This document shows, piece after piece, positions 15,139 through 58,966 of a stretch of 64,000 bases of DNA (positions are counted from its first letter, which is position 1; every line of letters starts with the position of its first letter). The notes beneath the pieces were generated by a model. That model saw only the letters and a program-made list of their open reading frames with translations, did no database searches and was not told the DNA's origin. A program made the translations under genes and the position numbers. Location of the stretch: the sequence record MK327947.1. The stretch is one strand, 5' to 3'. This stretch comes from Escherichia phage vB_EcoM_G5211.

Positions 15139-15162
15139 TTTAAACCTCCCATATAACAGAAA

Positions 15163-15190
15163 ACGGGGCTAGTATAAAACTAGTCCCCGT
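15163..15190 (-). terminator. hairpin between alt and Alt-like gene
   Basis: ACGGGGACTAGTTTTATACTAGCCCCGT palindrome, U-rich tail on minus strand. Confidence 0.4.
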
Positions 15191-15216
15191 TTGAGTCAAC
15201 CATTATTTCTTAAAAA

Positions 15217-17268
15217 TTACATTTTAAATTTATCTGGCATTGCGTCTACAGATACCAGATCAGCGATAAGCTGACGTAGAGTTGCCTTATCTGCTTTCTT
15301 ACGTTCGGTTTTAGCTTCGCTAATGAAGCTGGAGAAAGACAGGTCAGAAGCAGGTTTAATAACACCTTCACGGATGAATGCATCACCGTCCGCGATCATC
15401 TCGCCAGATTCTTGTAATGCTGCCAGTTCATTTTTGTTCATAATATGTGCCTCAATGTAATAAGTTTCTTGTGAATCCGTCGATGCCGTAGCACGAGTTA
15501 CCGTATCAAAGGATAACACAACACCGCGAGGAAGTAAAATCTCGCATTCTTTGTAAGCAAATGCTTTGTTACCTACTGGCAATACAGGGATGTTTTCCGC
15601 GCCAGCAATGGAGAAAGCAACATTAGCGCCACCTTCACCGCGAGAGCCAGCCATAGAATCAACACCAGCAACGGCACTAGCCACGTTTGCATTCCAGCCG
15701 CCAAAAATGTTAGGTGCAAGGGAAGTGCTCACATAGTTTTTAAAGTAAAACGCTTTTTGCTTACGTGCAGTTTCCCACATTTGCGACCGGAAGTCCATAC
15801 CACGATACAGAATAGTACCCGGATCAAGTTTAACGCCATAGTTGGAGAAGGCATTATCCAGTGCATCGCACATCTTGACCAATTCTTCTGGATCTGCGAT
15901 GCCTTCAAACTCTTCCAGCTTACGGTCGGTTAGGAAGTTGTTCATATTGATGTATGCTGCATCGGCATATTCGCTCAACACAAAACCTTCCGCGCCCGGC
16001 AGATCAAGATCAATATCTGCCATCATTTCACCCATGTTGCTAGCAATTGCTTCAAACATACCGGAAGCAACATTACGTAGGGCATCGGTTTTAATCTGGG
16101 TGATGTGACTACGCAGCATTTCAGCTTTTACATCTGCTGGCATAGACTGGTCTACTCGATCCATTGCCAGGGCGGTGATCTTGTTTTCGAATACTTCCTC
16201 GCTCATGATTTCTTTTAAGCGTTTGATTGATGCTGCGATAACTTCCGCAGACAATGGATCATATTGATCCTGAACTTTTACCAGTTCGCTTACTGCGTAT
16301 TTTGCATCGGCTTCGCTTTCAAAAATAGTACGCATGAAACCATAGCGAGTGATAATATCACTTGTCCAGTCATTCAGAGAACGGGCGGTTGAACGTTCTA
16401 AGGCTTGACGATCAATCAGAGTATTAAACTGTTTCTTAGGTTCGGCTTCGGTGATATCTTCTTCCGGTTTAAGATTAATTTTTTCTGGATGATTCACATA
16501 GTCGCTGTTATAGGTCGCTTGAGTTTTCAGCATTTCTTCTTTAGTCAAACGAGATTTAGCCGCTACGCGTTGTTCTGCTTCCGCGTTTCGTTCTTCTTCT
16601 GACACAAGACTAGCCGCATATGCCTCATCTTTAGTCAGAGATTCACCAGTAGCCTTAGATACCCAGCGATCACCTAAATCACTTTCTACTTTAGTGAACA
16701 AGGATTCATCAAGTTTAATCCCTTTAATCTTATCAATCGCCATCCCGCGACGCTTGACAACAACTAAAGCGATCTTTTTGCTGGTCATTACTTCCTGCTG
16801 GAATACTTCAAACTTCGGTGTACGACGCACCAAACGCTCTATAACGCGCTTAACCAGTTCGGTCTTACCTTTCATGCGGGATACGTTAAAACGGAACATA
16901 ACAGCGTCTAATTGCGCTTTACGGGCTGTTTCCATAACCACATCAAAAGCACTTGACATAACTGCAATCGGGTTATCGCCTAGACCATTTTTAAGCTGTA
17001 CAATACGACCGCTTTTGTTCATTTCGCACAGTACAACATGTGCGGTCTTGTCACCCATACGAATGATTTTAGGTGTTTTGTTGGTGAAGTTACAAAGACG
17101 GACAATCACATCTTTATCGCGTGTCTGTACTGCAAAAAGCTGTTTAGGATTCTGCTTAGGCTTTAAGCACTGTACCGGAGCAATACTGCCAAAGTTTTCT
17201 TCCTCTTCCGTCAACAGCCATTTCTCGAAAGATTCAATCATTAGATCGTCGATTTCTAAGTTAAACAT
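15217..17268 (-). CDS. alt: Alt ADP-ribosyltransferase
   Basis: 683 aa; C-terminal ART motifs YRG, STS, ECEILLPRG; position after gene 54. Confidence 0.8.
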   Translation of the reverse strand: MFNLEIDDLMIESFEKWLLTEEEENFGSIAPVQCLKPKQNPKQLFAVQTRDKDVIVRLCNFTNKTPKIIRMGDKTAHVVLCEMNKSGRIVQLKNGLGDNPIAVMSSAFDVVMETARKAQLDAVMFRFNVSRMKGKTELVKRVIERLVRRTPKFEVFQQEVMTSKKIALVVVKRRGMAIDKIKGIKLDESLFTKVESDLGDRWVSKATGESLTKDEAYAASLVSEEERNAEAEQRVAAKSRLTKEEMLKTQATYNSDYVNHPEKINLKPEEDITEAEPKKQFNTLIDRQALERSTARSLNDWTSDIITRYGFMRTIFESEADAKYAVSELVKVQDQYDPLSAEVIAASIKRLKEIMSEEVFENKITALAMDRVDQSMPADVKAEMLRSHITQIKTDALRNVASGMFEAIASNMGEMMADIDLDLPGAEGFVLSEYADAAYINMNNFLTDRKLEEFEGIADPEELVKMCDALDNAFSNYGVKLDPGTILYRGMDFRSQMWETARKQKAFYFKNYVSTSLAPNIFGGWNANVASAVAGVDSMAGSRGEGGANVAFSIAGAENIPVLPVGNKAFAYKECEILLPRGVVLSFDTVTRATASTDSQETYYIEAHIMNKNELAALQESGEMIADGDAFIREGVIKPASDLSFSSFISEAKTERKKADKATLRQLIADLVSVDAMPDKFKM

Positions 17269-17547: not shown

Positions 17548-17550
17548 TTG

Positions 17551-17615
17551 ATACTCCTTAGTAGTTCGTTTCGGTATGGGTGTATTATGATATACACCCT
17601 CTGTTATGTCAACAA
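17551..17615 (-). promoter_or_regulatory. early promoter/leader cassette
   Basis: TTGACA, ~17-nt spacer, CATAAT, conserved leader, GGAG SD. Confidence 0.55.
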
Positions 17616-17618
17616 CTT

Positions 17619-17798
17619 TTAGAACATTTTTGAAATTAATTCTGCTTTGATTTCGCAGAGAACATCTAAAGATTTCTCGTCACCCGCTTTTGCTGCTTCT
17701 GCTTGCATTTTTGAAATGGCTTCAATGTCAGTGCAATTATAAGCCGCTTGAACTTTAGCGATTGCGATGATTGCCGATTCGATGGTTAAGTGTTTCAT
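17619..17798 (-). CDS. hypothetical small early protein (59 aa)
   Basis: Hand-translated MKHLTIESAII...; preceded by cassette. Confidence 0.45.
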   Translation of the reverse strand: MKHLTIESAIIAIAKVQAAYNCTDIEAISKMQAEAAKAGDEKSLDVLCEIKAELISKMF

Positions 17799-17868
17799 GT
17801 TTGATTCTCCTTTCGTTTCGGTATGTGTGCATTATAGGGGATCTCCGACCCCCCTGTCAACAACTTTT
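17799..17868 (-). promoter_or_regulatory. early promoter/leader cassette with GC palindrome in spacer
   Basis: TTGACA 17855-17860, TATAAT 17831-17836, palindrome GGGGGGTCGGAGATCCCC between them, GGAGAATC SD. Confidence 0.55.
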
Positions 17869-18422
17869 TAGTTATTTTTTAATTGCTCATCTTGCAATAG
17901 GGCAATCACATGCTGGCGATGTTCTTCCGATTGAGGAACACCGAAAAAGTTTGTTTTGTAGAAATACTCTAATCGGTCTTCTCGTGTGCTCTCTTCCATC
18001 ATGATCGCGGGTAGTCCGAGATTTCGGAAACGTCGCTTTTCTGCTGGCGTAAAATCACTGTAATACAACATAGAATCATCATTACCAGCAATGCTAAACT
18101 CATCATTCATGAAGGAGAATATTGCGTTTAAACGCTGTTTACCGTCCACGATTTCGATCTCATAGCGAGAGCCATCATCAATCTTAGCCATTGCGATAGC
18201 ACCAACCGGAAAATCATTAATCAGGTTTTCGATAAACATACGTTTGTTTTCGGTGTCCCATACCAAAGGACGCTGATAATCTGGGTTCATGTTGATATAG
18301 CCATCTTCTAACCATGCATCATAAACAGAGATGACAAAGTTTTTAGTATTGGTATAGTAACGGCGTTTAGGCGTTAAACGGTTCATGTTATAGTCTCCTG
18401 AATGGATCATCACGTAAATCAA
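17868..18422 (-). CDS. DUF262 (ParB-like / GmrS N-terminal-like) domain protein
   Basis: PDYQRPLVWD ... FPVGAIAMA ... IVDGKQRLNAI matches the DUF262 signature (DGQQR-type motif). Confidence 0.6.
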   Translation of the reverse strand: MIYVMIHSGDYNMNRLTPKRRYYTNTKNFVISVYDAWLEDGYINMNPDYQRPLVWDTENKRMFIENLINDFPVGAIAMAKIDDGSRYEIEIVDGKQRLNAIFSFMNDEFSIAGNDDSMLYYSDFTPAEKRRFRNLGLPAIMMEESTREDRLEYFYKTNFFGVPQSEEHRQHVIALLQDEQLKNN

Positions 18423-18717
18423 TATCTTTTAAGAACTCATCCCATGAATGGCGGATATTGTTCTTAATTCTCCAGATAAGCGCAGGGATTGAACGCTCTC
18501 CCATCTGGAAGTAAGGATCATATGATCCGTATGCCCAATATGCTACTACAATTCCACAGTCAGCGCAATAGTATTCTATTTCACTTGCTGGCGACCAAAG
18601 TCCATCAATATGATCAGTGATCTTGCTTTCGATGTTATGACTATGACAATCAGGGCAACGGATGCAATGACCTTGTTTATCGTAATTTGACGTTAGAGAA
18701 TACTTAAACAATCTCAT
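18388..18717 (-). CDS. zinc-ribbon protein
   Basis: CIRCPDCH ... CADCG cysteine pairs; ATG overlaps upstream stop (TAATG). Confidence 0.5.
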   Translation of the reverse strand: MRLFKYSLTSNYDKQGHCIRCPDCHSHNIESKITDHIDGLWSPASEIEYYCADCGIVVAYWAYGSYDPYFQMGERSIPALIWRIKNNIRHSWDEFLKDIDLRDDPFRRL

Positions 18718-19433
18718 TATAGATCCTTATTGGCTTCAAATACTGCCTTTGCGAATCCTCGCGGGGTAAGTGACCTGATAGTCTTTGTTCTGGTTCCTTT
18801 CCCGCCTAGCTTAGAATGCTGTTTACTGTACCCTTTATTAATCTGCAACGGTTTCTTTTCTGGCATTATAAAGCCTTGTCCGGTCCATAAGCAAGTCTTT
18901 TTCGGGTACATATCACGGGCGGCAATATACTCAGGAAACGTAGGATGCTTATCATCTTCCGGCAAATAACCGCCATATTCCCACGGATGGAACATGTAAT
19001 CAGGCTTACGCCACATACTAGAGATAACGCTTACAGGATTCTCTATCATGTAGGGAACTCCTAGCCATTCACCCAAATAAGCGGTTATTTTAGCTGTCCG
19101 TACATCATGAACTTGAATCAATGGTCCTTGTTCTCGTTTCTTTCGTTCAAAGTGTGCAGCGCCACTAACAGCTAAATTGGTGCACGGTGGGAATGCAAAG
19201 ATAATATCCGGTTTCCCCCATTCAAGGTCCATTGCTCTTTCCAGCCAGTTCAAATCAATCCAGGTGTTTACATAAGTAATGTTTGGATGTTCAAATCTGG
19301 TATTATACTTTTTGTATGTACCGTGGTCGGCGTCATCCGCATTAAAGCAGACTACCTTATGACCTGCTTTAGCCCATTCTAGCCCCATTATCCCCGATCC
19401 GTCAAAGTTGCAGAATATTAATTTTTGTTTCAT
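18717..19433 (-). CDS. compact DNA C5-cytosine methyltransferase-like protein
   Basis: Motif I-like FCNFDGSGIMG, catalytic-type FAFPPC, ENP (ENV-like), C-terminal R-LTPR motif IX-like; only 238 aa. Confidence 0.5.
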   Translation of the reverse strand: MKQKLIFCNFDGSGIMGLEWAKAGHKVVCFNADDADHGTYKKYNTRFEHPNITYVNTWIDLNWLERAMDLEWGKPDIIFAFPPCTNLAVSGAAHFERKKREQGPLIQVHDVRTAKITAYLGEWLGVPYMIENPVSVISSMWRKPDYMFHPWEYGGYLPEDDKHPTFPEYIAARDMYPKKTCLWTGQGFIMPEKKPLQINKGYSKQHSKLGGKGTRTKTIRSLTPRGFAKAVFEANKDL

Positions 19434-19671
19434 ATACCACCCTTTAACCCAGCACAGATTTTAGTCGGTTCTTTACCGTGCCACATTAAGTAAAGTCCGT
19501 TAATGCGACCTTGTTTTGTGTGTGATTCTTTTCTAATCTTCTTATAGTGTCGTGCTTCCTCAACTTATTGTTTAGAATACCAATCATAAAGGAAGAGGCA
19601 CAAAGGCCAACCATTAGCGGCCTTAATGCAGTTATTAAGAAATTCCTTATTGCGTTTAATTAATTTTCTTT

Positions 19672-19923
19672 TCACGCTACCCCCATTGGTTTGATAGTAA
19701 CAGAATCTAAAAGACCTTTGTTAGCCAGTTCGCGGCAAGTTTTCAGATCCGCAACTTCCCAGCCAGCCGCAATCAGGTTATCAATCAGGCTGTTAGCAAC
19801 TTCTTCGCTCATGAAAGAGCACTGTTTGCCGATGGTGTAGCGCACACGCTGTAATTTCAGTTTACGGAAGCCTTTAACGTTCAGGTCTTTAGCGATTTTC
19901 TTTGCGGTTTCGATGTTAGCCAT
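19672..19923 (-). CDS. hypothetical early protein
   Basis: ORF preceded by cassette. Confidence 0.5.
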   Translation of the reverse strand: MANIETAKKIAKDLNVKGFRKLKLQRVRYTIGKQCSFMSEEVANSLIDNLIAAGWEVADLKTCRELANKGLLDSVTIKPMGVA

Positions 19924-19998
19924 TGTTTGATTCTCCTAAGTGGTATCTCGTCTTGATGGTTGTATTGTAGGGGAGTTATCCTCCCCTGTCAACACTTT
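19924..19998 (-). promoter_or_regulatory. early promoter/leader cassette with GC palindrome
   Basis: TTGACA 19987-19992, palindrome GGGGAGGATAACTCCCC, TACAAT, GGAGAATC. Confidence 0.55.
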
Positions 19999-20006
19999 TT
20001 ATAAAA

Positions 20007-20174
20007 TTATTTGTTAATTTCTGGTGCGTTGCTAGGATAGTAACCTTCTTTAACTCCGAGGTATTTCGCAACCATCCCTACAATCTTCTGTGCTACTACA
20101 ATGTCAAATTTCAGATAATCTTCGCCGTGGGTTTCAATGATATATGCTTCACATGCTGCTTTAGTCTCGAACAT
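20007..20174 (-). CDS. 55-aa conserved small protein, copy 1 of duplicated gene
   Basis: Hand-translated MFETKAACEAYIIETHGEDYLKFDIVVAQK...; near-identical to copy at 23273..23440. Confidence 0.55.
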   Translation of the reverse strand: MFETKAACEAYIIETHGEDYLKFDIVVAQKIVGMVAKYLGVKEGYYPSNAPEINK

Positions 20175-20242
20175 TTTGATTCTCCTATTTCGTTTCGGTA
20201 TGTGTGTAGTATAGGGGATCTCCCGATCCCCGTCAACAACTT
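20175..20242 (-). promoter_or_regulatory. early promoter/leader cassette with GC palindrome
   Basis: TTGACG, palindrome GGGGATCGGGAGATCCCC, TATACT, GGAGAATC. Confidence 0.5.
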
Positions 20243-20250
20243 TTTTAAAA

Positions 20251-20532
20251 TTATTCGTGATTAGTTTCGATATTGTGCATTTTGCACCAGTTCAGCCAAT
20301 CGCCCAGATCTTTATAGTTGATGCTTTTATCTGCTGCCATCGTTTTTGTCTTGATACCCATATGTGCGTTATGAGTAAGCATTTTTACAGTGAACTCAAT
20401 TTTATCGCCTTTAGCTTTAACATCAACCAGTTTGGTCCACTGGCTACCAGCGCCGCGAATGTTCATACCAACGATGTTTCCGATGTATGCTTCTTTGTTT
20501 TTCAGGATTTCGGTTGCTTTGATGAATTTCAT
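20251..20532 (-). CDS. hypothetical early protein
   Basis: ORF preceded by cassette. Confidence 0.5.
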   Translation of the reverse strand: MKFIKATEILKNKEAYIGNIVGMNIRGAGSQWTKLVDVKAKGDKIEFTVKMLTHNAHMGIKTKTMAADKSINYKDLGDWLNWCKMHNIETNHE

Positions 20533-20600
20533 TTTTGATTCTCCAGTTCGTTTCGGTATGGGTGTATTATGCTATGTTCTTACTTTGGTGTCAACAACTT
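20533..20600 (-). promoter_or_regulatory. early promoter/leader cassette
   Basis: TTGACA, CATAAT, conserved leader. Confidence 0.55.
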
Positions 20601-20602
20601 TT

Positions 20603-20872
20603 TTAGATATTTTCAGAAATAAATTTTAAAACTTGACGTAAATGTTTCTCATCTTTGATAGTCGCCGGAAGTTCTTCTTTTACTTCCTGTGCAAGATAGA
20701 TATTTCCGTTCCAAGTGAAAGATCCGTCTTTGTTTACGCGATAGCTGAACATCCACTCGCAATCATTTTCGATTTCATATACACACAGAAGGGTGTAATC
20801 GTTAAAGCTATTGATTTCAAGGTCGAAGCCGTGACGTTTTGCAAAGTTGGTAGTGGTTTTAGTCAGTGCCAT
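20603..20872 (-). CDS. hypothetical early protein
   Basis: ORF preceded by cassette. Confidence 0.5.
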   Translation of the reverse strand: MALTKTTTNFAKRHGFDLEINSFNDYTLLCVYEIENDCEWMFSYRVNKDGSFTWNGNIYLAQEVKEELPATIKDEKHLRQVLKFISENI

Positions 20873-20948
20873 TGTTTGATTCTCCTAAGTGGTATCTCGT
20901 TTCGATGGGTGTATTATGCTATAGGCTAGATCAGGTGTCAACAACTTT
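20873..20948 (-). promoter_or_regulatory. early promoter/leader cassette
   Basis: TTGACA 20936-20941, CATAAT, GGAGAATC. Confidence 0.55.
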
Positions 20949-20971
20949 TTTAATTTTTTGGAAATAAAAAA

Positions 20972-20991
20972 AGCCGACACTAAGGTCGGCT
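20972..20991 (-). terminator. hairpin + U-run
   Basis: AGCCGACCTTAGTGTCGGCT + TTTTTTT on minus strand. Confidence 0.6.
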
Positions 20992-20998
20992 AATAAAA

Positions 20999-21307
20999 TC
21001 ATTTAGACAAATAATCATTCTGTGCAATCCGGTCGGCGTATGCTGGTGTTATGTCAATCGCCAGCACTTTAACGCGTGCTTTCTTGCGACCTGTGTTTTC
21101 TCGTAACCAGTGCTCATGACCGTGAACATTTTTATACTGCGATGCTTCTTCGAAGGTACGGATCGGACCTGGATAATCTGCGTAAAGGATCTCTAGGTCT
21201 TCGGTGATGTAAAAATATACATCATAATTACTGTTCTCTAGTTTAAGCAGAGACTTTCGGAACATTGGGAGATTTTCGCGGGTAAATTCAAAGATATTAT
21301 CTTTCAT
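20999..21307 (-). CDS. small His-motif family protein, member 1
   Basis: Shares Y-x-Y...HxHxHW...(V)LA(I/V)D pattern with 21727..22005, 22020..22328, 22738..23016. Confidence 0.5.
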   Translation of the reverse strand: MKDNIFEFTRENLPMFRKSLLKLENSNYDVYFYITEDLEILYADYPGPIRTFEEASQYKNVHGHEHWLRENTGRKKARVKVLAIDITPAYADRIAQNDYLSK

Positions 21308-21335
21308 AGTATTATCCTCAATAGTTGGATGAAAA

Positions 21336-21352
21336 GGGGGCTTAACGCCCCC
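21336..21352 (-). terminator. hairpin + U-run
   Basis: GGGGGCGTTAAGCCCCC + TTTT; same hairpin as at 17314-17329. Confidence 0.5.
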
Positions 21353-21357
21353 ATATA

Positions 21358-21645
21358 TTAAAACAGACCTTCCTGTACACCGTAGTAGAGTTCATCGCTG
21401 ATAATTTCATTAATGCGACGGTGTGCATATTCCTGATTTGCGAAGTTGTCAGCAAGTTCTACTTTAGTTTCGCCGTCATGAGTCCATTTAGTGATAACTT
21501 TACCATCTGCAAATTTGAAGTTGAACTCTTTAGCTACCGCATCGCGTACCAGACGTGCAAACTTATTGTTGCGGATTGCATTGTCGGTTTCGTGTGCAGC
21601 GTGAGCGAATTTGTTAACTTTCAGAGTGATAGTAATGTATGCCAT
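21358..21645 (-). CDS. hypothetical early protein
   Basis: ORF preceded by cassette. Confidence 0.5.
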   Translation of the reverse strand: MAYITITLKVNKFAHAAHETDNAIRNNKFARLVRDAVAKEFNFKFADGKVITKWTHDGETKVELADNFANQEYAHRRINEIISDELYYGVQEGLF

Positions 21646-21728
21646 AATTTGATTCTCCTAGTTAGAAAGTGTATCTCGTTTCGATGGGTGTATTATGCTA
21701 TACACCCAACCTCATGTCAACACTTTTT
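21646..21728 (-). promoter_or_regulatory. early promoter/leader cassette
   Basis: TTGACA 21715-21720, CATAAT, GGAGAATC. Confidence 0.55.
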
Positions 21729-22005
21729 ATAAAATAATTTTTTGATATTTTTCTATGATGTTCGTGTAATTCACATCAACCGCTAGCACCGTTGCTTCGA
21801 ATCCACCGTTTAGCCAATGGCTATGATCGTGATCGTGAAAGAAACCTAGACCAGTACGAAGACCTTCTTTATATTCGGCGCGTACATTTAGATCATCATC
21901 GATAAACAGATAAAACCATGAATTTTTACTAGGATTGATGATACAACCTTTCAGATTCGGGAGAATATCACGACTAAGAATAAACTTATCACCTACTTTG
22001 AACAT
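21727..22005 (-). CDS. small His-motif family protein, member 2
   Basis: FHDHDHSHWL ... VLAVDV. Confidence 0.5.
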   Translation of the reverse strand: MFKVGDKFILSRDILPNLKGCIINPSKNSWFYLFIDDDLNVRAEYKEGLRTGLGFFHDHDHSHWLNGGFEATVLAVDVNYTNIIEKYQKIIL

Positions 22006-22019
22006 AATATTTTCCTCAC

Positions 22020-22328
22020 TTATAAAGTTTGACCGTTGTTTTTCGCATAATGCTTAATGCGTGCTTGATCTGCTTCCGCTGGTGATAGATTCCATGCAAC
22101 CACTACAACTTCTGACGCATCGTCATCCGTTTCTGATACCCAATGGTTGTGATTCATACAGTTATTTGCTATCGAGTGAGCAAATGATTTCATCACTGGA
22201 GACGTATAATCATAGTAACGGATTTTCAGATTTTCATCAACATACAAGTAGATCGTATAAGGTTTATATTCAGTAACCAGTAACAGACAGTTACGCAATT
22301 CTGGGAAAATCTTTTTAGTTAATTTCAT
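22020..22328 (-). CDS. small His-motif family protein, member 3 (track ORF extends to 22409)
   Basis: MNHNHWV ... VVVAWN; GAGGA RBS before internal ATG at 22328. Confidence 0.45.
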   Translation of the reverse strand: MKLTKKIFPELRNCLLLVTEYKPYTIYLYVDENLKIRYYDYTSPVMKSFAHSIANNCMNHNHWVSETDDDASEVVVVAWNLSPAEADQARIKHYAKNNGQTL

Positions 22329-22329
22329 T

Positions 22330-22551
22330 TTATAATCCTCGGTCGCGGCTATAGTACACGGTACGCCATACAATTTCATGTTTCGTGTCGCTCCAGCACA
22401 CGATCTCATTTACTCTTAAATCTTTGTTATCAACAAAAGATGAACATTGTGACGCTTCTTTCATCATTTTATCTGCTGTTTTCTCATCAAATACAGCACA
22501 GATTTCTTTATACACTCGATAATCTTTAAACTTGCTCATAATTAACACCAA
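22330..22551 (-). CDS. MSKFKDY-family small protein, copy 1
   Basis: Tandem paralog of 22542..22757. Confidence 0.5.
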   Translation of the reverse strand: MVLIMSKFKDYRVYKEICAVFDEKTADKMMKEASQCSSFVDNKDLRVNEIVCWSDTKHEIVWRTVYYSRDRGL

Positions 22552-22757
22552 TCAAGAGTTTTTGAGAAAACCTCTATCCATTGTTGAGTATATGCGGTTT
22601 CTTTCCATGATACAATACCAGTAGAATAATGGTTTTTGTTTCCAGAAAATGACGGGCATTTTGATGCATCTTCCATCATCTTTTCGGCGAACTCTGGTTC
22701 GTATACTCGCAAGATCTGTTGATATGCTTTATAATCTTTAAATTTGCTCATAATCAT
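22542..22757 (-). CDS. MSKFKDY-family small protein, copy 2
   Basis: Tandem paralog of 22330..22551. Confidence 0.5.
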   Translation of the reverse strand: MIMSKFKDYKAYQQILRVYEPEFAEKMMEDASKCPSFSGNKNHYSTGIVSWKETAYTQQWIEVFSKTLDWC

Positions 22758-23016
22758 TCACTACCTTATCAGCTTCTTTTGTTGTTTTTACATCAACTGC
22801 GATAACCCGTAAAGGTTCGTCATGGTTCCACCAATGATCGTGAATATCGGCTTGTGATTTATCACCAAAGGAATCACGAATATCATTTTTACTTTTATAG
22901 CTAATGTGACCGTCATAGTCAACATAAAGGTAATTATCGAAAATCGGCGTTTTTAAGATCATGCCGAAAAATCTTTCTTTGTGTGTCTTATCCAGCGTTG
23001 CAGTAATTCGCATCAT
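22738..23016 (-). CDS. small His-motif family protein, member 4
   Basis: IHDHWWNH ... VIAVDV. Confidence 0.5.
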   Translation of the reverse strand: MMRITATLDKTHKERFFGMILKTPIFDNYLYVDYDGHISYKSKNDIRDSFGDKSQADIHDHWWNHDEPLRVIAVDVKTTKEADKVVNDYEQI

Positions 23017-23028
23017 AATATATTCCTC

Positions 23029-23208
23029 TTAGAAAGGGATGGTCATTTCTTGAGCTTGTACATTCTCGTTAGGATTAAACTTCATCCAACCAATATTGTC
23101 TACCAGCATATGCACATTTTTATCATATCCTACGTGAGTAGTCAACACTAAATGTGATTTACCTTCAACGATGATTTCCATGTACTTCTGAACTTCGATA
23201 GCTTTCAT
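23029..23208 (-). CDS. hypothetical small early protein (59 aa)
   Basis: Hand-translated MKAIEVQKYMEIIVEG...; preceded by cassette. Confidence 0.45.
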   Translation of the reverse strand: MKAIEVQKYMEIIVEGKSHLVLTTHVGYDKNVHMLVDNIGWMKFNPNENVQAQEMTIPF

Positions 23209-23272
23209 TTTGATTCTCCGTTTGTTGTCTTGATGGGAGTATCTTACTACTCCCTTTAATCATTGTCAACTA
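23209..23272 (-). promoter_or_regulatory. early promoter/leader cassette
   Basis: TTGACA 23264-23269; GGGAGTAGTAAGATACTCCC palindrome spanning TAAGAT -10; GGAGAATC. Confidence 0.5.
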
Positions 23273-23440
23273 TTATTTGTTAATTTCTGGTGCGTTGCTT
23301 GGATAGTAACCTTCTTTAACACCCAGATATTTTGCAACCATTCCGGTGATCTTCTGTGCTACTACGATATCGAATTTCAGGTAGTCTTCACCGTGTTTTG
23401 CTACAATGTATGCTTCGCATTCTGCTTTAGTCTGGAACAT
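23273..23440 (-). CDS. 55-aa conserved small protein, copy 2 of duplicated gene
   Basis: Hand-translated MFQTKAECEAYIVAKHGEDYLKFDIVVAQK...; paralog of 20007..20174. Confidence 0.55.
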   Translation of the reverse strand: MFQTKAECEAYIVAKHGEDYLKFDIVVAQKITGMVAKYLGVKEGYYPSNAPEINK

Positions 23441-23520
23441 TTTTGATTCTCCTATATCTCGTTGGTATGTGTGTATTATAGGGGATCTCCCGATCCCCTG
23501 TCAACAACTTTTTTGAATTA
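23441..23520 (-). promoter_or_regulatory. early promoter/leader cassette with GC palindrome
   Basis: TTGACA 23509-23514, GGGGATCGGGAGATCCCC, TATAAT, GGAGAATC. Confidence 0.55.
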
Positions 23521-23994
23521 TTTTTCTTGATGCTCGCGCTCGTACTTTTCGAAATAAAATTCTACTGGCTGGTCATGAATTGACAGCAAGCCAAAGCGTT
23601 TAGCCGCTCGCAATCCCATATTGCGCTGAATGTACTTCTGGAAGTTCTCGCGTATACACTTACGCCAGTATTCTAAGCCCATACAGCTTTTATAAAGATT
23701 GCATTGTACACACGCCGGATTCATGTTATCAAGTATATCATGTTCCGGTTTATGCATTCCTACAACCTTATACTTCCACGACCCATCATCATTACGGGCA
23801 ATTCGTCCATTTTCATCATAGACTACCTTTGAGCGTCGCAATACTGGTTTGATATGGTCTGCGTGCCAGCGATCCCCTAGTTCCTCGCCACAATAGGCAC
23901 AACGCCCACCGTATTTCATTTTCAGGATCTGGCGTTGCTCTTTCTTTGACAATTTTTTAGGTTTAGGGGCTTTCGCCCCTTCATTATCACACAT
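23518..23994 (-). CDS. HNH endonuclease
   Basis: CAYCGEEL...HADHIKPV...NMNPACVQCN HNH/zinc-finger motif; overlaps 3' end of ligase gene. Confidence 0.65.
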   Translation of the reverse strand: MCDNEGAKAPKPKKLSKKEQRQILKMKYGGRCAYCGEELGDRWHADHIKPVLRRSKVVYDENGRIARNDDGSWKYKVVGMHKPEHDILDNMNPACVQCNLYKSCMGLEYWRKCIRENFQKYIQRNMGLRAAKRFGLLSIHDQPVEFYFEKYEREHQEK

Positions 23995-31298: not shown

Positions 31299-31368
31299 CT
31301 TGATACTCCTTAGTTGTTTTGGTATGGGAGTATCTTACTACTCCCGTGATATGCTGTCAACTGCTTTT
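31299..31368 (-). promoter_or_regulatory. early promoter/leader cassette
   Basis: TTGACA 31355-31360; GGGAGTAGTAAGATACTCCC palindrome over -10. Confidence 0.5.
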
Positions 31369-31518
31369 TTATGCAACCGCAAACATCAACATTTGAACAT
31401 TCTTGGCTGTCTGGCTTTCAAAGTTCTGACATTCTTTGATAATGTCCTCTACTTTCTCGCCGGAGATCTCCGCGTAAGTTTCGATTGCCATTTTCAGTAC
31501 CGCGTCAAAGTTGTTCAT
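31369..31518 (-). CDS. hypothetical small protein (49 aa)
   Basis: Hand-translated MNNFDAVLKMAIETYAEISG...; preceded by cassette. Confidence 0.4.
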   Translation of the reverse strand: MNNFDAVLKMAIETYAEISGEKVEDIIKECQNFESQTAKNVQMLMFAVA

Positions 31519-31592
31519 TTGATTCTCCTTAAAGTGTATTTCGTTTCGATGGGGGTATATTACTACCCCCGTTTCATGCTGTCAACTACTTT
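31519..31592 (-). promoter_or_regulatory. early promoter/leader cassette
   Basis: TTGACA 31580-31585; GGGGGTAGTAATATACCCCC palindrome. Confidence 0.5.
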
Positions 31593-31804
31593 TTAATGAC
31601 AAGTTCGAATTTTGCTACCTTGCGTCCTCGTTTATTGAAAGCAACCCACGGACGGTTTTCAATGTAGAACAATTCTTCGCCAATAATGAATACTGGCTGA
31701 TTGTAAAGGCGACCCATCAGGTCACGCTGGCGAATGGTAGTAGATTCGTATACTTCGCCTACTACAAAGTGCTTGCTGATAGAGTCGGTGCAAGTAAATT
31801 TCAT
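31586..31804 (-). CDS. hypothetical early protein
   Basis: ORF preceded by cassette. Confidence 0.5.
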   Translation of the reverse strand: MKFTCTDSISKHFVVGEVYESTTIRQRDLMGRLYNQPVFIIGEELFYIENRPWVAFNKRGRKVAKFELVIKK

Positions 31805-31875
31805 TTTGATTCTCCTTTGTTTCGTTTCGATGGGGGTATATTACTACCCCCCCGTTATTCAGTGTCAACTACTTT
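31805..31875 (-). promoter_or_regulatory. early promoter/leader cassette
   Basis: TTGACA 31863-31868; palindrome over -10. Confidence 0.5.
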
Positions 31876-32094
31876 TTACTTGTTGTATTCATTCCACCAT
31901 TGGGTTAGCTTATCAATTATTTTTGTGTTTCTATCCAACTTCTCCCACCGTTTTCTAGGGTTTATCAACCGGAATAGGTAAGGTGTACTTGTTAAGTGAA
32001 CTCGGTCAATGTAGTGATTGATGTACTGCTTTTCGATTCTAAGTTTCATCTTTTTACGATGAAAATATGCAATGACTTGTTCTTCTGTTTCCAT
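31876..32094 (-). CDS. hypothetical early protein
   Basis: ORF preceded by cassette. Confidence 0.5.
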   Translation of the reverse strand: METEEQVIAYFHRKKMKLRIEKQYINHYIDRVHLTSTPYLFRLINPRKRWEKLDRNTKIIDKLTQWWNEYNK

Positions 32095-32152
32095 ATGTTC
32101 CTCCGTTTCGATGTGCGTATTATGCTATGGCAAGATCAGATTGTCAACACCC
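32095..32152 (-). promoter_or_regulatory. early promoter/leader cassette
   Basis: TTGACA 32142-32147, CATAAT. Confidence 0.5.
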
Positions 32153-32163
32153 AATAACAAAAA

Positions 32164-32183
32164 AGTCGCCACTATGGGCGACT
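32164..32183 (-). terminator. hairpin + U-run
   Basis: AGTCGCCCATAGTGGCGACT + TTTTT. Confidence 0.55.
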
Positions 32184-32194
32184 TTGAACAAACA

Positions 32195-34915: not shown

Positions 34916-34982
34916 AATAAAATCCTCACTTGTTTTTGATGGTTGTATTATAGCGGGGATTTCTCCCCGCGTCAACACTTAT
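34916..34982 (-). promoter_or_regulatory. early promoter/leader cassette with GC palindrome
   Basis: TTGACG, GCGGGGAGAAATCCCCGC, TATAAT. Confidence 0.5.
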
Positions 34983-34983
34983 T

Positions 34984-37227
34984 TTACAGCTTGCAAGATG
35001 AGCACTCGCTAGCGTCTTCCGTACCATCTGCACCGTCGCGAACGTTCGCATAATACAGGGTTTTCAGACCGTAATATTGAGCAAACAACATATCATCTAA
35101 TACATCAGCAATATCGACTTTACCAGTCTTATAAGTGCTTGGATCGTAGGATGTGTTGGAACTAATCGCCTGATCTACAAACTTCTGCATGATCGCTGCC
35201 AGTGTCAGATAAGGCTTGTTACCTTTCTTGATCAGTGTCCAAAGCAGGTCAATAACATCAGCATTATTCTCTACGTTCGGAATAACCTGATTAAATTGCC
35301 CTTCTTTCGATCCTTTAACCGATACAATACCGCGAGGCGGTTCAATACCGTTTGTGCTGTTAGATACCTGAGAAGACGACTCACAAGGCATCAGCGCCGA
35401 CAGTGTACTGTTACGAATGCCATATTTTTTCAGGTCTTCGCGCAGTTCTTCCCAATCCATCTCATACACCGGATCAACCAGTTCATCTACTGTCTTTTTG
35501 TACCAGTCGATAGGAAGTTCACCGCGACCATAGCGTGTTTCGTGCATCAGTTCGCAAGCACCCTTCTCTTTAGCCAGTCGCACACTAGCCTTAATCAGAG
35601 CATATTGCAAGCGTTCAAACGTTTTATGCGTAAACTCGTTAGCGTCTTCATATGTGAAGAAATTATCTGCTAGATATGATGCAAAGTTAGTAACACCAAC
35701 ACCCAGAGAGCGACGTTTTTTGGCTGTCAGAGCTTGTTCTACAGGATAATCCTGATAATCTAACAGGTTGTCAAGTGCACGCACCATAACCATAGCAATG
35801 CGTTCTACTTCTTCCATATTTTCGATATCGAAATTACCTAAAACATATGCTGCCAAAGTACATAGGCTAATTTCTGAATCATCACGCCCCATCGGTTTTG
35901 TTGGCAGAGCAATTTCACAACACAAGTTAGATTGTTTAATCGGTGCTACATTACGAATAAACGCCCCGTGATTGTTCATGTTGTCTGTGAACGTTGGGTA
36001 GATTCGACCAGTGTTAAAACGTTCAATTGCCACCGCTAAAAACAGGTCTTCGGCTTTAACACGAGTTTTACGAACACTCGGATCTTTTTCCAGTTTTTCG
36101 TAAAGCTGGCGGAAACCTTCCTCATCTCGGAAGTATAGATCCCACAACAAGCCACCCGCAACATCTGGACTAAACAGAGTAATGTAATCCCGTTTAAGGA
36201 ATCGCTCTACCATCAGGTTATTAATCTGTACGCCGTAGTCAAGATGGCGAATGCGGTTATCTTCCACGCCCTTATTGTTCTTTAACACAATCAGACTTTC
36301 AAACTCTAAATGCCACATTGGGTAATAGAGAGTCGCCGCCCCGCCACGAATGCCGCCTTGTGAGCATGACTTAACGGCAGTCTGAAAATGTTTCCAGAAT
36401 GGGATAACGCCAGTATGACGAACTTCACCATGCCCGATCTTAGATCCTTCCGCGCGAATCATGCCAGCGTTGATACCGATACCAGCACGCTTGCTAATAT
36501 ACTTGATGATTGCATTTGCTGTTTCGTTGATGCCCTGCAATGAGTCATCACTTTCAATCACCACACACGAACTAAATTGGCGTGTTGGGGTACGCACACC
36601 TGCCATAATCGGAGTAGGCAGAGAGATTTGCTTATTCGCAACAGCATTATAAAAATCAATCACATGTTCAAGTCGATTTTCTGTCTCTTCTTGATGCAAG
36701 CACATACCGATCAGCATATACGCAAATTGCGGTGTTTCGATGATTTTCTTAGTGCTGCGATCCTGAACAAGATATTTCTCTTTTAACTGCATCGCACCAG
36801 CATAGGTCATTTTAAAATCAAGTTTATGGTCGATGAATTTCTCCAGATATTCCACTTCTTCACGGGAATACTTTTGCAGAATTTCGCGATCATATTTTCC
36901 GGTTGCAATATTACGCTCAATATGGCTGTAAAAATCAATCGGTTGGAATTGACCGTATACTGATTTGCGAAGCGCGAACATTGCAAGGTTACTTGCTACA
37001 TATTGATAATCGGGCGTTTCTACCGTGATGTTATCTGCGGCGACCTTAATCAATACTTTCTGGATATCATTGGTAGACATACCTTCTGTCAGAAGTGGTT
37101 CAACCATATCAAACAATTCATATGGATCAACGTTATGACCTTCGGCTGCCGCTTCCAGAATTTTCATTACTTTTTCTTTTTCAAACGGAACAGTCAGACC
37201 GGAAGACTTAACAACATTTTTAATCAT
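34984..37227 (-). CDS. nrdA: ribonucleotide reductase large subunit (class Ia)
   Basis: N-terminal ATP-cone, catalytic Cys/Asn/Glu region (NLCCEI), C-terminal CxxC redox pair. Confidence 0.9.
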   Translation of the reverse strand: MIKNVVKSSGLTVPFEKEKVMKILEAAAEGHNVDPYELFDMVEPLLTEGMSTNDIQKVLIKVAADNITVETPDYQYVASNLAMFALRKSVYGQFQPIDFYSHIERNIATGKYDREILQKYSREEVEYLEKFIDHKLDFKMTYAGAMQLKEKYLVQDRSTKKIIETPQFAYMLIGMCLHQEETENRLEHVIDFYNAVANKQISLPTPIMAGVRTPTRQFSSCVVIESDDSLQGINETANAIIKYISKRAGIGINAGMIRAEGSKIGHGEVRHTGVIPFWKHFQTAVKSCSQGGIRGGAATLYYPMWHLEFESLIVLKNNKGVEDNRIRHLDYGVQINNLMVERFLKRDYITLFSPDVAGGLLWDLYFRDEEGFRQLYEKLEKDPSVRKTRVKAEDLFLAVAIERFNTGRIYPTFTDNMNNHGAFIRNVAPIKQSNLCCEIALPTKPMGRDDSEISLCTLAAYVLGNFDIENMEEVERIAMVMVRALDNLLDYQDYPVEQALTAKKRRSLGVGVTNFASYLADNFFTYEDANEFTHKTFERLQYALIKASVRLAKEKGACELMHETRYGRGELPIDWYKKTVDELVDPVYEMDWEELREDLKKYGIRNSTLSALMPCESSSQVSNSTNGIEPPRGIVSVKGSKEGQFNQVIPNVENNADVIDLLWTLIKKGNKPYLTLAAIMQKFVDQAISSNTSYDPSTYKTGKVDIADVLDDMLFAQYYGLKTLYYANVRDGADGTEDASECSSCKL

Positions 37228-39767: not shown

Positions 39768-39832
39768 AATATAATCCTCTCTTTGTTTTGATGTTTGTAT
39801 TATACACTATTGCGTTACGCTGTCAACCTTTT
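39768..39832 (-). promoter_or_regulatory. early promoter/leader cassette
   Basis: TTGACA 39821-39826, TATAAT. Confidence 0.55.
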
Positions 39833-58962: not shown

Positions 58963-58966
58963 TTTT

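Follow-up and report, generated by a model that had tools for sequence, protein, structure and literature searches.

Promoter cassettes in a Krischvirus genome

The stretch analyzed here (the window; 64,000 nucleotides of phage vB_EcoM_G5211) belongs to a Krischvirus (RB49-like) genome, with 96-97% identity to Krischvirus genomes. Its positions 17551-23520 are collinear with phi1 ORF185-205, the locus at which promoter-early stem-loop (PeSL) cassettes were originally defined (PMC2839356). The repeated units in the window are PeSL cassettes of RB49-like T4-type coliphages, in which small accessory genes are preceded by a strong early promoter with an integral hairpin and by a standard leader. 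A profile trained on the nine copies in 17551-23520 and run over the window with nhmmer identified 20 family members at E ≤ 0.016, all on the minus strand: nine in 17551-23520, four in 31299-32152, one at 34916-34982, two weaker ones at 39768-40215, and four in 58671-59752 (Table 1). The initial annotation had placed minus-strand cassettes in these same intervals, as well as at 41246-41310, where the search found simply the promoter of gene 32. Its count of "more than 20" copies was an overstatement, the number being about 20, and its statement that they precede most small genes was too strong, as 9 of the ∼21 genes in 17551-23520 lie directly behind a cassette and the others in short operons. 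A hairpin-bearing early promoter at 15139..15221, unlisted in that annotation, lay beyond the reach of the profile. The tallies of -35 elements and hairpins below cover 22 sites, namely the 20 family members, 41240..41325, and 15139..15221.

Table 1. Cassettes and related promoters in the window (promoter given as -35, spacer length in nt, and -10; E, nhmmer).
Coordinates	Strand	Assignment	Downstream gene	Promoter	Hairpin and leader features
15139..15221	-	PeSL-like hairpin-bearing early promoter, downstream of alt; E = 1.8		TTGACT-17-TATACT	13-bp bulged hairpin at 15161-15192, -10 in loop, T-rich tail; -18 to -20 kcal/mol, z = -4.5
17548..17634	-	class II	70-aa ORF	TTGACA-17-CATAAT	GGGTGTAT-atcata-ATACACCC at 17578-17599; SD AGGAGTATCAA
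17799..17882	-	class I with G·T wobble	59-aa ORF	TTGACA-18-TATAAT	GGGGGTC-gga-GATCCCC at 17836-17854
19924..20014	-	class I	83-aa ORF leading 5-gene operon	TTGACA-17-TACAAT	AGGGGAG-gataa-CTCCCCT at 19969-19987, z = -4.7
20175..20258	-	class I	55-aa ORF (phi1 ORF191 orthologue; paralogue of 23273-23440)	TTGACG-17-TATACT	GGGGATC-ggga-GATCCCC at 20214-20231; G·T variant in phi1
20533..20616	-	PeSL without any hairpin	93-aa ORF	TTGACA-17-CATAAT	leader ATACCGAAACGAACT, SD GGAGAATCAAAA; MFE -2 kcal/mol, z = +0.2
20873..20991	-	class III, without core hairpin	89-aa ORF	TTGACA-17-CATAAT	canonical terminator AGCCGAC..GTCGGCT at 20972-20991, then T7
21646..21742	-	class II	95-aa ORF (phi1 ORF198 orthologue)	TTGACA-17-CATAAT	TGGGTGTAT-agcata-ATACACCCA at 21685-21708
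23209..23291	-	class II	first gene of 6-ORF operon	TTGACA-17-TAAGAT	GGGAGTA/TACTCCC at 23235-23254, z = -4.4
23441..23526	-	class I, chimeric	55-aa ORF (phi1 ORF205 orthologue)	TTGACA-18-TATAAT	AGGGGATC-ggga-GATCCCCT at 23480-23499
31299..31382	-	class II	132-aa ORF	TTGACA-17-TAAGAT	GGGAGTA/TACTCCC at 31326-31345, z = -3.7
31519..31607	-	class II	49-aa ORF		GGGGGTA/TACCCCC at 31551-31570
31805..31890	-	class II	72-aa ORF	TTGACA-19-TAATAT	GGGGGTA-gtaata-TACCCCC within 31828-31854
32095..32185	-	class III	72-aa ORF	TTGACA-17-CATAAT	canonical terminator AAAGTCGCC..GGCGACTTT at 32162-32185, then 6 T in 8 nt
34916..34997	-	class I	55-aa ORF between nrdA and nrdB	TTGACG-17-TATAAT	GCGGGGA-gaaa-TCCCCGC at 34953-34970, z = -5.2
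39768..39848	-	weak PeSL without hairpin; E = 0.016	109-aa ORF	TTGACA-16-TATAAT	leader ATCAAAACAAAGA, SD GAGGATT; no stable fold
40153..40262	-	weak class III	109-aa ORF	TTGACA-16-TATAAT	leader ATCGAAACAAC, SD GGAGGATT; canonical terminator AAAGCCTTCC..GGAGGCTTT at 40239-40262, then T run
41240..41325	-	generic early promoter of gene 32, outside cassette family; E = 5.4	322-aa ORF, gp32 by collinearity with phi1	TTGACA-16-TATAAT	no hairpin, conserved leader or SD
58671..58755	-	class II	252-aa ORF	TTGACA-17-TAAGAT	GGGAGTA-gtaaga-TACTCCC at 58699-58718; SD GAGGAA, not GGAG
58897..58978	-	class I	51-aa ORF	TTGACA-17-TATACT	AGGGGATC-ggc-GATCCCCT at 58933-58951
59180..59259	-	class II	70-aa ORF	TTGACG-17-TAACAT	ATGGGAGTA/TACTCCCAT at 59201-59224, -13 kcal/mol, without T tail
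59680..59780	-	class III; E = 3e-5	90-aa ORF, ATG 59679	TTGACT (at 59739)-17-CATAAT	hairpin AAGCCGA..TCGGCTT at 59758-59780, then 7 T in 8 nt; SD AGGAGAATCAAAG

Each cassette runs from an A-rich tract through TTGACA, a 16-19 nt spacer, a TATAAT-like -10, and an A-rich unstructured leader to GGAGAATCAAA and ATG. Among the -35 elements, TTGACA (17 copies) predominates over TTGACG (3) and TTGACT (2); spacers measure 17 nt (14 copies), 16 nt (3), 18 nt (2), or 19 nt (1); and the -10 variants include TATAAT, TATACT, TACAAT, CATAAT, and TAAGAT. ACACCC, previously assigned to the leader, belongs to the discriminator (-6 to -1). Allowing up to one mismatch, there are 14 occurrences of GGAGAATCAAA (1.9 expected), each on the minus strand. 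The best σ70 matches in 15000-24000 are the cassettes (10-12 of 12 positions), and the GEC-3S annotation puts promoters at identical sites. Their earlier reading as early σ70 promoters with a conserved leader and Shine-Dalgarno (SD) sequence is borne out by phi1 orthologues, for which ∼13,000 Miller units of lacZ were measured with PeSL206/205, the orthologue of the 23504 copy (PMC2839356), and by the RB49 early-promoter consensus, which reportedly agrees with 5'-end mapping (PMC1524935).

The T4 RegB/S1 consensus is GGAGRAYARAA, with which GGAGAATCAAA agrees at 10 of 11 positions; the exception is position 8, a fixed C where T4 has an A that is among the best-conserved positions of its consensus. 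Of the 13 minus-strand occurrences of GGAGRAYNRAA (0.8 expected), 12 fall within cassettes. Moreover, GGAG lies within the SD of 18/22 cassette genes versus 18/51 other genes (p = 3e-4). The candidate site sits in the unstructured leader, and RB49 reportedly encodes a diverged RegB. Cleavage by RegB, as suggested in the initial annotation, is plausible from sequence; regB is absent from the window.

Hairpins at the cassette promoters

The hairpin fills the spacer in 6 copies (class I) and spans the -10 in 9 (class II), and 7 of the 22 sites have none in the core; class III sites carry a canonical terminator upstream of the promoter. A stable GC-rich hairpin is present in 15/22, and the four palindromes quoted as examples in the initial annotation all occur. 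Folding energies are -10 to -20 kcal/mol for these 15 copies and -0.8 to -5 kcal/mol for hairpin-less copies, and hairpin z scores against shuffles range from -1.1 to -5.2.

The stems are under structural selection. At least eight different stem sequences occur, with pairing kept through compensatory substitutions, as in orthologues of 21646..21742, which carry GGGGATAT/ATATCCCC or GGGGGTAT/ATATCCCC; the phi1 orthologue of 31805..31890, GGGGGTA/TACTCCC, is a G·T intermediate. In one subclass, a single pair is found as AU (12), GC (5), and GU (2), and in the other, double changes affect three pairs; in both, 0/500 shuffles reached the observed score. Krischvirus loci yielded 74 unique hairpin cores. 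Of these, 66 pair perfectly and 8 contain a single internal mismatch, which is G·T or T·G on the sense strand in 8/8 and never A·C, with ∼6 independent loci underlying this asymmetry. These tests favor a hairpin formed in one strand over an operator.

The hairpin is located 20-40 nt past the stop codon of the upstream gene. As it ends before the start site of its own cassette, it is never part of the mRNA of that cassette. A canonical hairpin with a T-run lies ≤55 nt upstream of 4/7 cassettes without a core hairpin versus 0/15 with one (Fisher p ∼0.005). The 8 nt after the hairpin contain 0-3 T for the spacer-type and -10-spanning forms versus 5-7 for canonical terminators, and a terminator scan called neither of these two forms, which miss the U-tract of intrinsic terminators. 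The one stem-loop assayed in the literature, that of phi1 PeSL211/210, is of the spacer type and, outside its own promoter context, matched rrnB T1 in lowering downstream lacZ (PMC2839356); for -10-spanning hairpins, we infer termination. Both hairpin and upstream terminator are missing from three cassettes (20594, 39826, and 41303), and insulation is therefore not obligatory.

Recombination junctions in the cassettes

Comparison with six genomes (phi1, RB49, FL37, JK32, UPWr_E1, and Cognac) placed the junctions of 9 of ∼16 indels or replacements inside cassettes, which make up ∼3.5% of the window. PeSL 23504 is a chimera, with an upstream half resembling phi1 PeSL212/210 and a leader resembling PeSL206/205, and phi1 ORF206-210 are missing at this locus (23441..23526). 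The 109-aa ORF of cassette 40153..40262 replaces phi1 ORF240 (junctions 39833 and 40150), and phi1 has an extra ORF263.1 (junction 58957-58977, in cassette 58897..58978). RB49 carries ORF192 inserted at 20251-20255, in cassette 20175..20258, a unit wholly missing in JK32 and UPWr_E1, and RB49, JK32, and UPWr_E1 have ∼400 extra bp (ORF195/196) at cassette 20873..20991. Likewise, JK32 and UPWr_E1 lack the PeSL+ORF unit 31376-31515, the junctions being in the flanking PeSLs, and JK32 and Cognac lack the 17799..17882 unit, whose junctions are in PeSLs 17612 and 17860. Furthermore, nucleotide identity is 85%, cassette included, between the two paralogues of 55 aa (20007-20174 and 23273-23440). PeSL repeats thus double as crossover points in the gain and loss of small accessory genes; this role as recombination linker, missed by the initial annotation, is the best documented for PeSLs.

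Proposed working of a cassette

The initial annotation suggested that the palindrome is an operator, whose half-sites a dimeric phage or host protein reads in duplex DNA, repressing or activating early promoters. The palindromes do overlap the promoter core, the usual place of repressor action, GGGGA..TCCCC is confined to cassettes within the window (4 matches versus 0.08 expected), and MotA and middle promoters are missing from RB49-like phages (PMC1524935). However, loops of 3, 4, 5, or 6 nt change half-site spacing and phase, the hairpin register varies (+5..+23 or +13..+36 from the -35, or upstream of it), the many stem sequences share compensated pairing, and strand-asymmetric G·T mismatches have no meaning for duplex recognition. 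Seven cassettes function without the palindrome, canonical terminators stand in for it, and a published experiment shows terminator activity for one of these stem-loops (PMC2839356), making an operator very improbable. That the repeats are recently duplicated DNA with palindromes as functionless passengers fits cassettes clearly copied with their gene (20007-20174 and 23273-23440), but is scarcely credible given that double substitutions at orthologous sites preserve pairing, loops are free to vary but stems are not, most cores are perfect, and the design recurs with different leaders in a diverged 150-kb IMG/VR contig. GNRA loops stabilize RNA hairpins, and several cassette loops are GNRA-like (GGGA, GAAA). 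Together with the missing U-tracts, the G·U-only mismatches that indicate RNA, and a position always just beyond the upstream stop codon, they would suit a hairpin that acts on RNA otherwise than as a terminator, whether by capping and protecting the 3' end of the upstream mRNA, by directing the processing of that mRNA, or by releasing polymerase only at a roadblock of promoter-bound polymerase. We consider this unlikely, as the isolated PeSL211/210 stem-loop cut lacZ about as much as rrnB T1 (PMC2839356), a drop unexpected from a 3' cap alone unless processing also inactivates the downstream message.

A hairpin could also be a structure-specific recombination signal, a cruciform or single-stranded target of a nuclease or recombinase likened to integron attC sites, giving site-specific mobility instead of general homologous recombination. 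Arbiol et al. speculate that GGGG...CCCC binds a recombination protein and compare the cassettes with integrons (PMC2839356); the clustering of indel junctions at cassettes agrees with this, and strand-specific pairing is also compatible with a single-stranded DNA substrate. Yet some junctions map to the A-rich tract ahead of the -35 (20251-20255, 58957-58977, and 39833), one between hairpin and leader (the 23504 chimera), one at a start codon (40150), and others anywhere within a 70-97-nt overlap; this scatter is characteristic of homologous exchange rather than of cleavage at a fixed site. Cassettes 20941, 39826, and 40209 have junctions as well, although they lack a core hairpin, and no integrase or recombinase is reported for these genomes (PMC2839356), so that we regard such a signal as improbable.

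The cassettes are most probably compact, self-contained expression units that combine an early σ70 promoter, a hairpin acting on upstream read-through RNA, and a recombination linker. In such a unit, the A-tract, near-consensus -35 and -10, and C-rich discriminator would recruit unmodified host σ70 RNA polymerase immediately after infection, with the A in the conserved CAT as the predicted transcription start, and the A-rich, unstructured leader of 18-40 nt would display a ribosome-binding site of the GGAG type. Ending near -13 or -1, the GC-rich hairpin would form only in read-through RNA of the upstream gene; there it may (i) attenuate or terminate the transcript or (ii) cap its 3' end, thereby insulating each small gene. 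The phage homologous recombination machinery would cross over between the ∼20 repeats of this ∼90-nt unit, all in a single orientation, and so delete, insert, or swap promoter+ORF modules. Cutting of the GGAGAAUCAAA site by the phage RegB nuclease may then shut off the early genes.

The cassettes are real, functional, and already known. Arbiol et al. (2010) described them as PeSLs in this region of phi1 and RB49 and supported both promoter and terminator activity with reporter assays (PMC2839356), and the finding in this genome is accordingly real but not novel.

A repeated early promoter ahead of small minus-strand genes

A search profile built from nine copies in 17551-23520 picked up 20 members of the family across the window at E <= 0.016. 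Every one lies on the minus strand: nine in 17551-23520, four in 31299-32152, one at 34916-34982, two weaker ones at 39768-40215, and four in 58671-59752. The repeated minus-strand promoter and leader unit described in the initial annotation is thus real, and the best sigma-70 matches within 15000-24000 are these cassettes, at 10-12 of 12 consensus positions. The stretch at 41246-41310, also listed as a copy, proved to be the ordinary gene 32 promoter (TTGACA-16-TATAAT), which does not share the family's leader, Shine-Dalgarno (SD) sequence, or hairpin (E = 5.4). Left off the list was a promoter at 15139-15221 that does carry a hairpin. Further, the statement that cassettes precede most small genes was too broad, since only nine of the ~21 genes of the region have a cassette of their own.

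The sequence from 17400 to 23700 was matched by 63 phage records, the best of them Krischvirus, a genus of RB49-like coliphages of the T4 type, at 96-97% identity (megablast). The window is collinear with phi1 from ~99 kb to the record end (gene 24/hoc to rIIB), and 17551-23520, whose phi1 counterpart is ORF185-ORF205, holds small unknown genes flanked by alt (15217-17268) and DNA ligase gene 30 (23987-25489); phi1 and RB49 each align collinearly with the window across this region at 95-98%. The cassette loci correspond to the ORFan regions of phi1, and the annotation of GEC-3S marks promoters at the same sites. Rfam returned no family for 15000-24000, its sole match being a chance snoRNA (E = 0.3).

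The vB_EcoM_G5211 cassettes are the known promoter-early stem-loop (PeSL) element, at the same locus where PeSLs were first defined: they show a consensus promoter, an AT-rich tract, a stem-loop, an SD and start codon, an ORFan locus, phi1/RB49 orthology, and indel junctions. The name was coined by Arbiol et al. (2010) for phi1 and RB49, with 52 and 51 PeSLs, respectively, which were sorted into five subclasses by stem-loop position and noted to contain G-T pairs in their stems (PMC2839356).

Each cassette begins with an A-tract, AAAAAAGTTG, ahead of the -35 (the upstream 20 nt being A/T-rich in family members), and the stop codon of the preceding gene lies 10-20 nt upstream of the -35. All 22 sites carry a sigma-70 consensus early promoter, comprising (i) a -35 of the form TTGAC(A/G/T), (ii) a spacer mostly of 17 nt (range, 16-19 nt), and (iii) a TATAAT-like -10 (TATAAT, TATACT, TACAAT, CATAAT, or TAAGAT), which is followed by a C-rich discriminator (ACACCC, ACACAC, or ACTCCC). 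ACACCC, previously taken for leader sequence, is assigned by this anatomy to the promoter discriminator. The leader starts with AT(AC)CGAAACGA or ATCAAGACAAC and ends with (A)GGAGAATCAAA followed by ATG; it measures 18-40 nt, with A making up 50%, and has essentially no structure (minimum free energy, 0 to -3 kcal/mol). An SD and ATG are present at all sites, 18-40 nt past the predicted start, and GGAGAATCAAA with at most one mismatch occurs 14 times, against 1.9 expected. The downstream ORFs are mostly 49-132 aa and have no Pfam hit.

The initial annotation was right to read these sites as early promoters, given the sigma-70 consensus at all of them and the ~13,000 Miller units of lacZ activity driven by the orthologue PeSL206/205 (PMC2839356). 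For two PeSLs, most clones gained -35 or -10 mutations, which the authors ascribed to promoters too strong to clone (PMC2839356). According to Nolan et al. (2006), the RB49 early-promoter consensus agrees with the 5'-end mapping of Desplats et al. (2002), and RB49 has neither MotA nor middle promoters (PMC1524935). The cassettes are real, far beyond chance, and functional.

Cassette classes, gene-content differences, and neighbouring features (cassettes are named by the coordinate of their -35)
Feature	Location	Description
Class I cassettes	58956, 34975, 23504, 20236, 19992, 17860	Hairpin fills spacer, +5 to about +23 from -35; stems GGGGATC/GATCCCC, GGGGAG/CTCCCC, GCGGGGA/TCCCCGC
Class II cassettes	59237, 58733, 31868, 31585, 31360, 23269, 21720, 17612, 15199	Hairpin spans -10, hexamer mostly in loop, 3' arm ends at -1; stems GGGAGTA/TACTCCC, GGGGGTA/TACCCCC, GGGTGTAT/ATACACCC
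Class III cassettes	59739, 40209, 32147, 20941	No core hairpin; canonical hairpin and T-run <=55 nt upstream of -35; stems AAGCCGA..TCGGCTT and similar
Cassettes of no class	20594, 39826, 41303	Neither hairpin nor upstream terminator
ORF186 unit	17588-17812	Absent from JK32 and Cognac
ORF191 unit	20011-20175	Absent from JK32 and UPWr_E1
RB49 ORF192	20251-20255	Insertion; published example, recovered here
ORF195/196	20941 cassette	Insertion in RB49, JK32, UPWr_E1
ORF206-210	23504 cassette	Missing from window; other genomes carry 1.1-1.9 kb there
Cognac replacement	20243-23534	Bounded by cassettes of two paralogous 55-aa genes
49-aa unit	31376-31515	Absent from JK32 and UPWr_E1
phi1 ORF240	Between 39826 and 40209 cassettes	109-aa ORF instead
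phi1 ORF263.1	58957-58977	Insertion
GIY-YIG SegE-like gene	3354-4106 (+)	Non-cassette insertion, just upstream of uvsW
HNH_3+AP2 gene	33858-34397 (-)	Non-cassette insertion, interval between nrdB and next small ORF
158-aa ORF	23518-23994 (-)	Directly upstream of 23504 cassette; HNH motif (Pfam E = 5e-6); HNH endonuclease in JK32 annotation; overlaps ligase gene start
55-aa paralogues	20007-20174, 23273-23440	89% identical; same spacer-hairpin cassette each
Four-member ORF family	20999-21307, 21727-22005, 22020-22328, 22738-23016	27-34% identity
Tandem ORF pair	22330-22551, 22542-22757	44% identity
Operon	17868-18386, 18388-18717, 18717-19433 (all -)	Region's one multi-gene operon with recognisable domains
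Cassette-free canonical terminator	21336-21352 (-)	Between ORF198 and ORF197 homologues
Cassette-free terminator	17315-17329 (both strands)	Bidirectional-looking; interval between ORF185 homologue and alt
Motif GAGGAWWWTAWTATG, without GGAG	58682, 57601, 39779, 34927, 27375, 23028, 22017 (-)	Second initiation motif
IMG/VR spacer-hairpin loci	L120, L037, L123, L027, L118, L066, L122, L064, L071, L132, L042, L121 and others	

Hairpins in and near the promoter core

Stable hairpins were found in 15 cassettes (-10 to -20 kcal/mol; z, -1.1 to -5.2 for 51-nt cores against dinucleotide shuffles), and five 51-nt cores had no stable fold (-0.8 to -5 kcal/mol, z >= 0). By position, six hairpins lie in the spacer (class I), nine lie over the -10 (class II), and four lie upstream with a T-run (class III), with three cassettes having none. 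The class I and class II hairpins end before the predicted start site and are therefore absent from the cassette's own mRNA; they can form only in read-through RNA from upstream or in single-stranded DNA.

The palindrome had been proposed to be an operator for a regulator, a reading that would call for half-sites of fixed spacing, position, and sequence. We compared 107 unique cassette cores, drawn from IMG/VR fragments and six Krischvirus genomes as well as from the window, counting pairs of the spacer type with a structure-aware procedure (Python), as MAFFT placed its gaps at the 5' end and not in the loop. In the class of stems with the 5' arm GGGNGTA, 99% of the cells are paired, compared to 47-75% after a shift of the 3' partners by 1-3 columns; the fourth pair occurs as AU (12), GC (5), and GU (2), and the covariation score of the class was reached by 0 of 500 shuffles. 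The GGGTGTAT class shows changes on both sides at three pairs. For instance, at the site upstream of the ORF198 homologue, the window has the stem GGGTGTAT/ATACACCC, and phi1 and GEC-3S have GGGGATAT/ATATCCCC; an intermediate, GGGGGTAT/ATATCCCC, is carried by an IMG/VR fragment. Spacer-type loops (ggga, ggt, ggc, acc, gcga, gga, gataa, gaaa, cacgt, and gaaca) are 3-5 nt long and have no conserved sequence. Among 74 hairpin-bearing cores, 66 are perfect and eight have one internal mismatch, in a census that penalized every mismatch type equally and required at least two Watson-Crick pairs on each side; read on the sense strand, every one of the eight is G·T or T·G, with no A·C among them. These eight come from ~6 independent loci, for which a simple sign test gives ~0.02, and the asymmetry is thus suggestive, not conclusive, in favouring sense-strand pairing (as RNA or non-template DNA) over recognition of a duplex palindrome. 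Taken with loops of 3-6 nt across the cassettes, three positional classes, at least eight stem sequences with compensatory double changes, and the exchange with canonical terminators described below, these results do not support an operator.

The cassettes place a GC-rich hairpin downstream of a stop codon, as terminators do. A canonical terminator (GC hairpin with T-run) lies just upstream of four of the seven cassettes that have no core hairpin and of none of the 15 that have one (Fisher p ~0.005), and this complementary distribution indicates that canonical and core hairpins share a function. The covariation, the freedom of the loop, the strand asymmetry, and the complementary distribution jointly argue against an operator; they favour a terminator or insulator whose target would be read-through transcripts. 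The phi1 stem-loop of PeSL211/210 cuts downstream lacZ as much as rrnB T1 (PMC2839356), and our check of the phi1 sequence showed that this tested stem-loop is of the spacer type (GGGGATC-ggt-GATCCCC). The main weakness of the terminator reading is the U-tract: it is present after the four class III hairpins (5-7 T), but hairpins in the spacer or over the -10 are followed within 8 nt by only 0-3 T (except at 15199), and our terminator scan called none of them; those over the -10 are putative terminators. The cassette hairpins resemble intrinsic terminators in having a GC-rich hairpin of 7-9 bp just past a stop codon and an orthologous stem-loop that lowers downstream expression as much as rrnB T1, but after the spacer-type and -10-spanning ones the U-tract gives way to the -10 hexamer or to the beginning of the next transcript.

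Two canonical terminators of the 17551-23520 neighbourhood, each a GC hairpin with a T-run, stand apart from any cassette (see table). Given the one at 21336-21352, the downstream 102-aa ORF (20999-21307) has an SD and no visible promoter.

A scan of IMG/VR with the pattern TTGACR-GGGG-N8-11-CCCC-TA gave 92 unique sites, 54 of which place a stem of 6 bp or more within the spacer of the promoter; these are raw, uncontrolled counts. The sites fall into at least seven unrelated sequence families of uncultured phages, for which the phage collection contains no close relative, and in many of them an SD and ATG follow at 20-40 nt. Hairpins embedded in spacers may thus be frequent far beyond the T4-like phages. 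One could go further and suppose that the hairpins without a U-tract, lying outside their own transcripts, form a distinct terminator inside a promoter, which would release polymerase held against a promoter-bound polymerase or act through a strand-specific single-stranded structure, in a design widespread beyond T4-like phages; we consider this unlikely.

Unrelated viral contigs, too, contain the sequence GGGNGTAGTAANATACNCCC of the -10-spanning hairpin, there with no surrounding sigma-70 promoter. At six such loci (L008, L012, L014, L015, L023, and L024), the variable position is paired in all six (G-C, C-G, or G·T), and some have a T-run. About seven chance matches are expected, on a rough guess of the collection size, and the consistent pairing is unlike chance.

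Leaders and ribosome-binding regions

The leader had also been suggested to suit the T4 RegB endoribonuclease. The target of T4 RegB with S1 is a single-stranded GGAGRAYARAA, most often GGAGAAUAAAA (Durand et al., 2006; PMC1702504). As in T4, the cassettes have GGAG in an early-gene SD followed by an A-rich single-stranded stretch, and GGAGAAUCAAA fits 10 of the 11 positions; position 8, in contrast, is always C in the cassettes, whereas T4 sites prefer A. The window has no exact GGAGRAYARAA; its minus strand has 13 matches to the relaxed GGAGRAYNRAA (0.8 expected), of which 12 fall in cassettes and all have C at position 8. With a crude gene call, 18 of 22 cassette genes have GGAG as part of their SD, compared to 18 of 51 other genes (p = 3e-4), and the mean unpaired probability of the RegB-type 11-mer is mostly 0.55-0.9. 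Both regB and asiA lie outside the window, and in its phi1 counterpart (98-164 kb) no annotated gene bears the name regB. According to a review, the regB of RB49 has diverged substantially, and its own GGAU site is cut in vivo (PMC3014915). This divergent regB, together with the unstructured GGAG leaders, makes RegB targeting of the leader a reasonable hypothesis, and we put the chances that the standard leader is a RegB target at about even; the conservation of the SD could equally be explained by inheritance along with the rest of the cassette.

A second initiation motif, GAGGAWWWTAWTATG, is used mostly by internal operon genes instead of the GGAG type, and the phage thus seems, from its sequence, to have two stereotyped ribosome-binding regions. 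The one multi-gene operon of the region with recognisable domains (17868-19433) encodes an ORF with GmrSD_N (DUF262), a zinc-ribbon-like ORF (weak, below the Pfam cut-off), and a 238-aa ORF that relatives' annotation names a DNA (C-5 cytosine) methyltransferase and that has no Pfam hit.

Gene exchange at cassettes and known systems

A role of the cassettes in recombination was overlooked in the initial annotation. We scored indels and replacements against phi1, RB49, FL37, JK32, UPWr_E1, and Cognac, and found junctions inside cassettes in nine of ~16 events, which is a very strong enrichment, as cassettes make up ~3.5% of the window. Two insertions with junctions off the cassettes are accounted for by free-standing homing-endonuclease-like genes (the SegE-like and HNH_3+AP2 genes), which are absent from phi1, JK32, UPWr_E1, and Cognac; two further off-cassette events lie in the variable hoc and gp37 genes, and the remaining ones are a JK32 insertion near uvsW, ORF189.1, and a divergent patch at 57626-58269. 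The 23504 cassette is chimeric, with the upstream gene end, A-tract, -35, and 5' arm of phi1 PeSL212/210 and the leader and gene of PeSL206/205. Junction sites vary by event, several being in the A-tract, one in the core, and one at the start codon, which fits homologous exchange and not a site-specific cut.

Few concrete mechanisms have been put forward for the exchange of accessory genes by large virulent phages without damage to their regulation, and PeSLs are among them, with a single repeated promoter serving as expression signal, insulator, and recombination linker together. The cassettes explain most of the gene-content differences among Krischvirus isolates in the region, and for annotation they mark the transcription-unit boundaries of ~20 small early genes. 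For engineering, they are strong natural promoter modules that come already insulated, and they mark predictable positions at which to insert payloads.

None of this promoter, insulator, and linker picture is new for RB49-like phages. Arbiol et al. proposed that ORFan modules are shuffled by PeSL x PeSL recombination and detected mini-circles (PMC2839356), and Comeau et al. (2014) carried the PeSL idea to T4/PST and KVP40/nt-1 (PMC4122927); our literature search found no later mechanistic work on PeSLs, and the Petrov 2010 review mentions neither asiA nor PeSL. What we add is a G·T bias of the sense strand, the complementary distribution with respect to canonical terminators, and a confirmation of the junction enrichment in the newer genomes FL37, JK32, UPWr_E1, and Cognac.

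The vB_EcoM_G5211 cassettes match the PeSLs of phi1 and RB49 (i) in genus and loci, being collinear with phi1 ORF185-205, (ii) in architecture, with an AT-rich tract, a sigma-70 promoter, a polyG/polyC stem-loop (in the spacer, at the -10, or upstream), and an SD and start codon, and (iii) in their tie to ORFans in hyperplastic regions and their indel behaviour. They differ in nothing essential; the differences are in module content, as vB_EcoM_G5211 lacks ORF206-210 and ORF263.1, has the 109-aa ORF in place of ORF240, and carries the chimeric PeSL at 23504. Beyond these phages, PeSL units resemble integron cassettes and lambdoid morons, a comparison made by Arbiol et al. themselves (PMC2839356), in that small accessory genes are mobile with their own expression signals. 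Unlike integrons, PeSLs have no integrase or fixed crossover point, homology being provided by the repeated promoter, and unlike PeSL units, lambdoid morons have no flanking conserved repeat.
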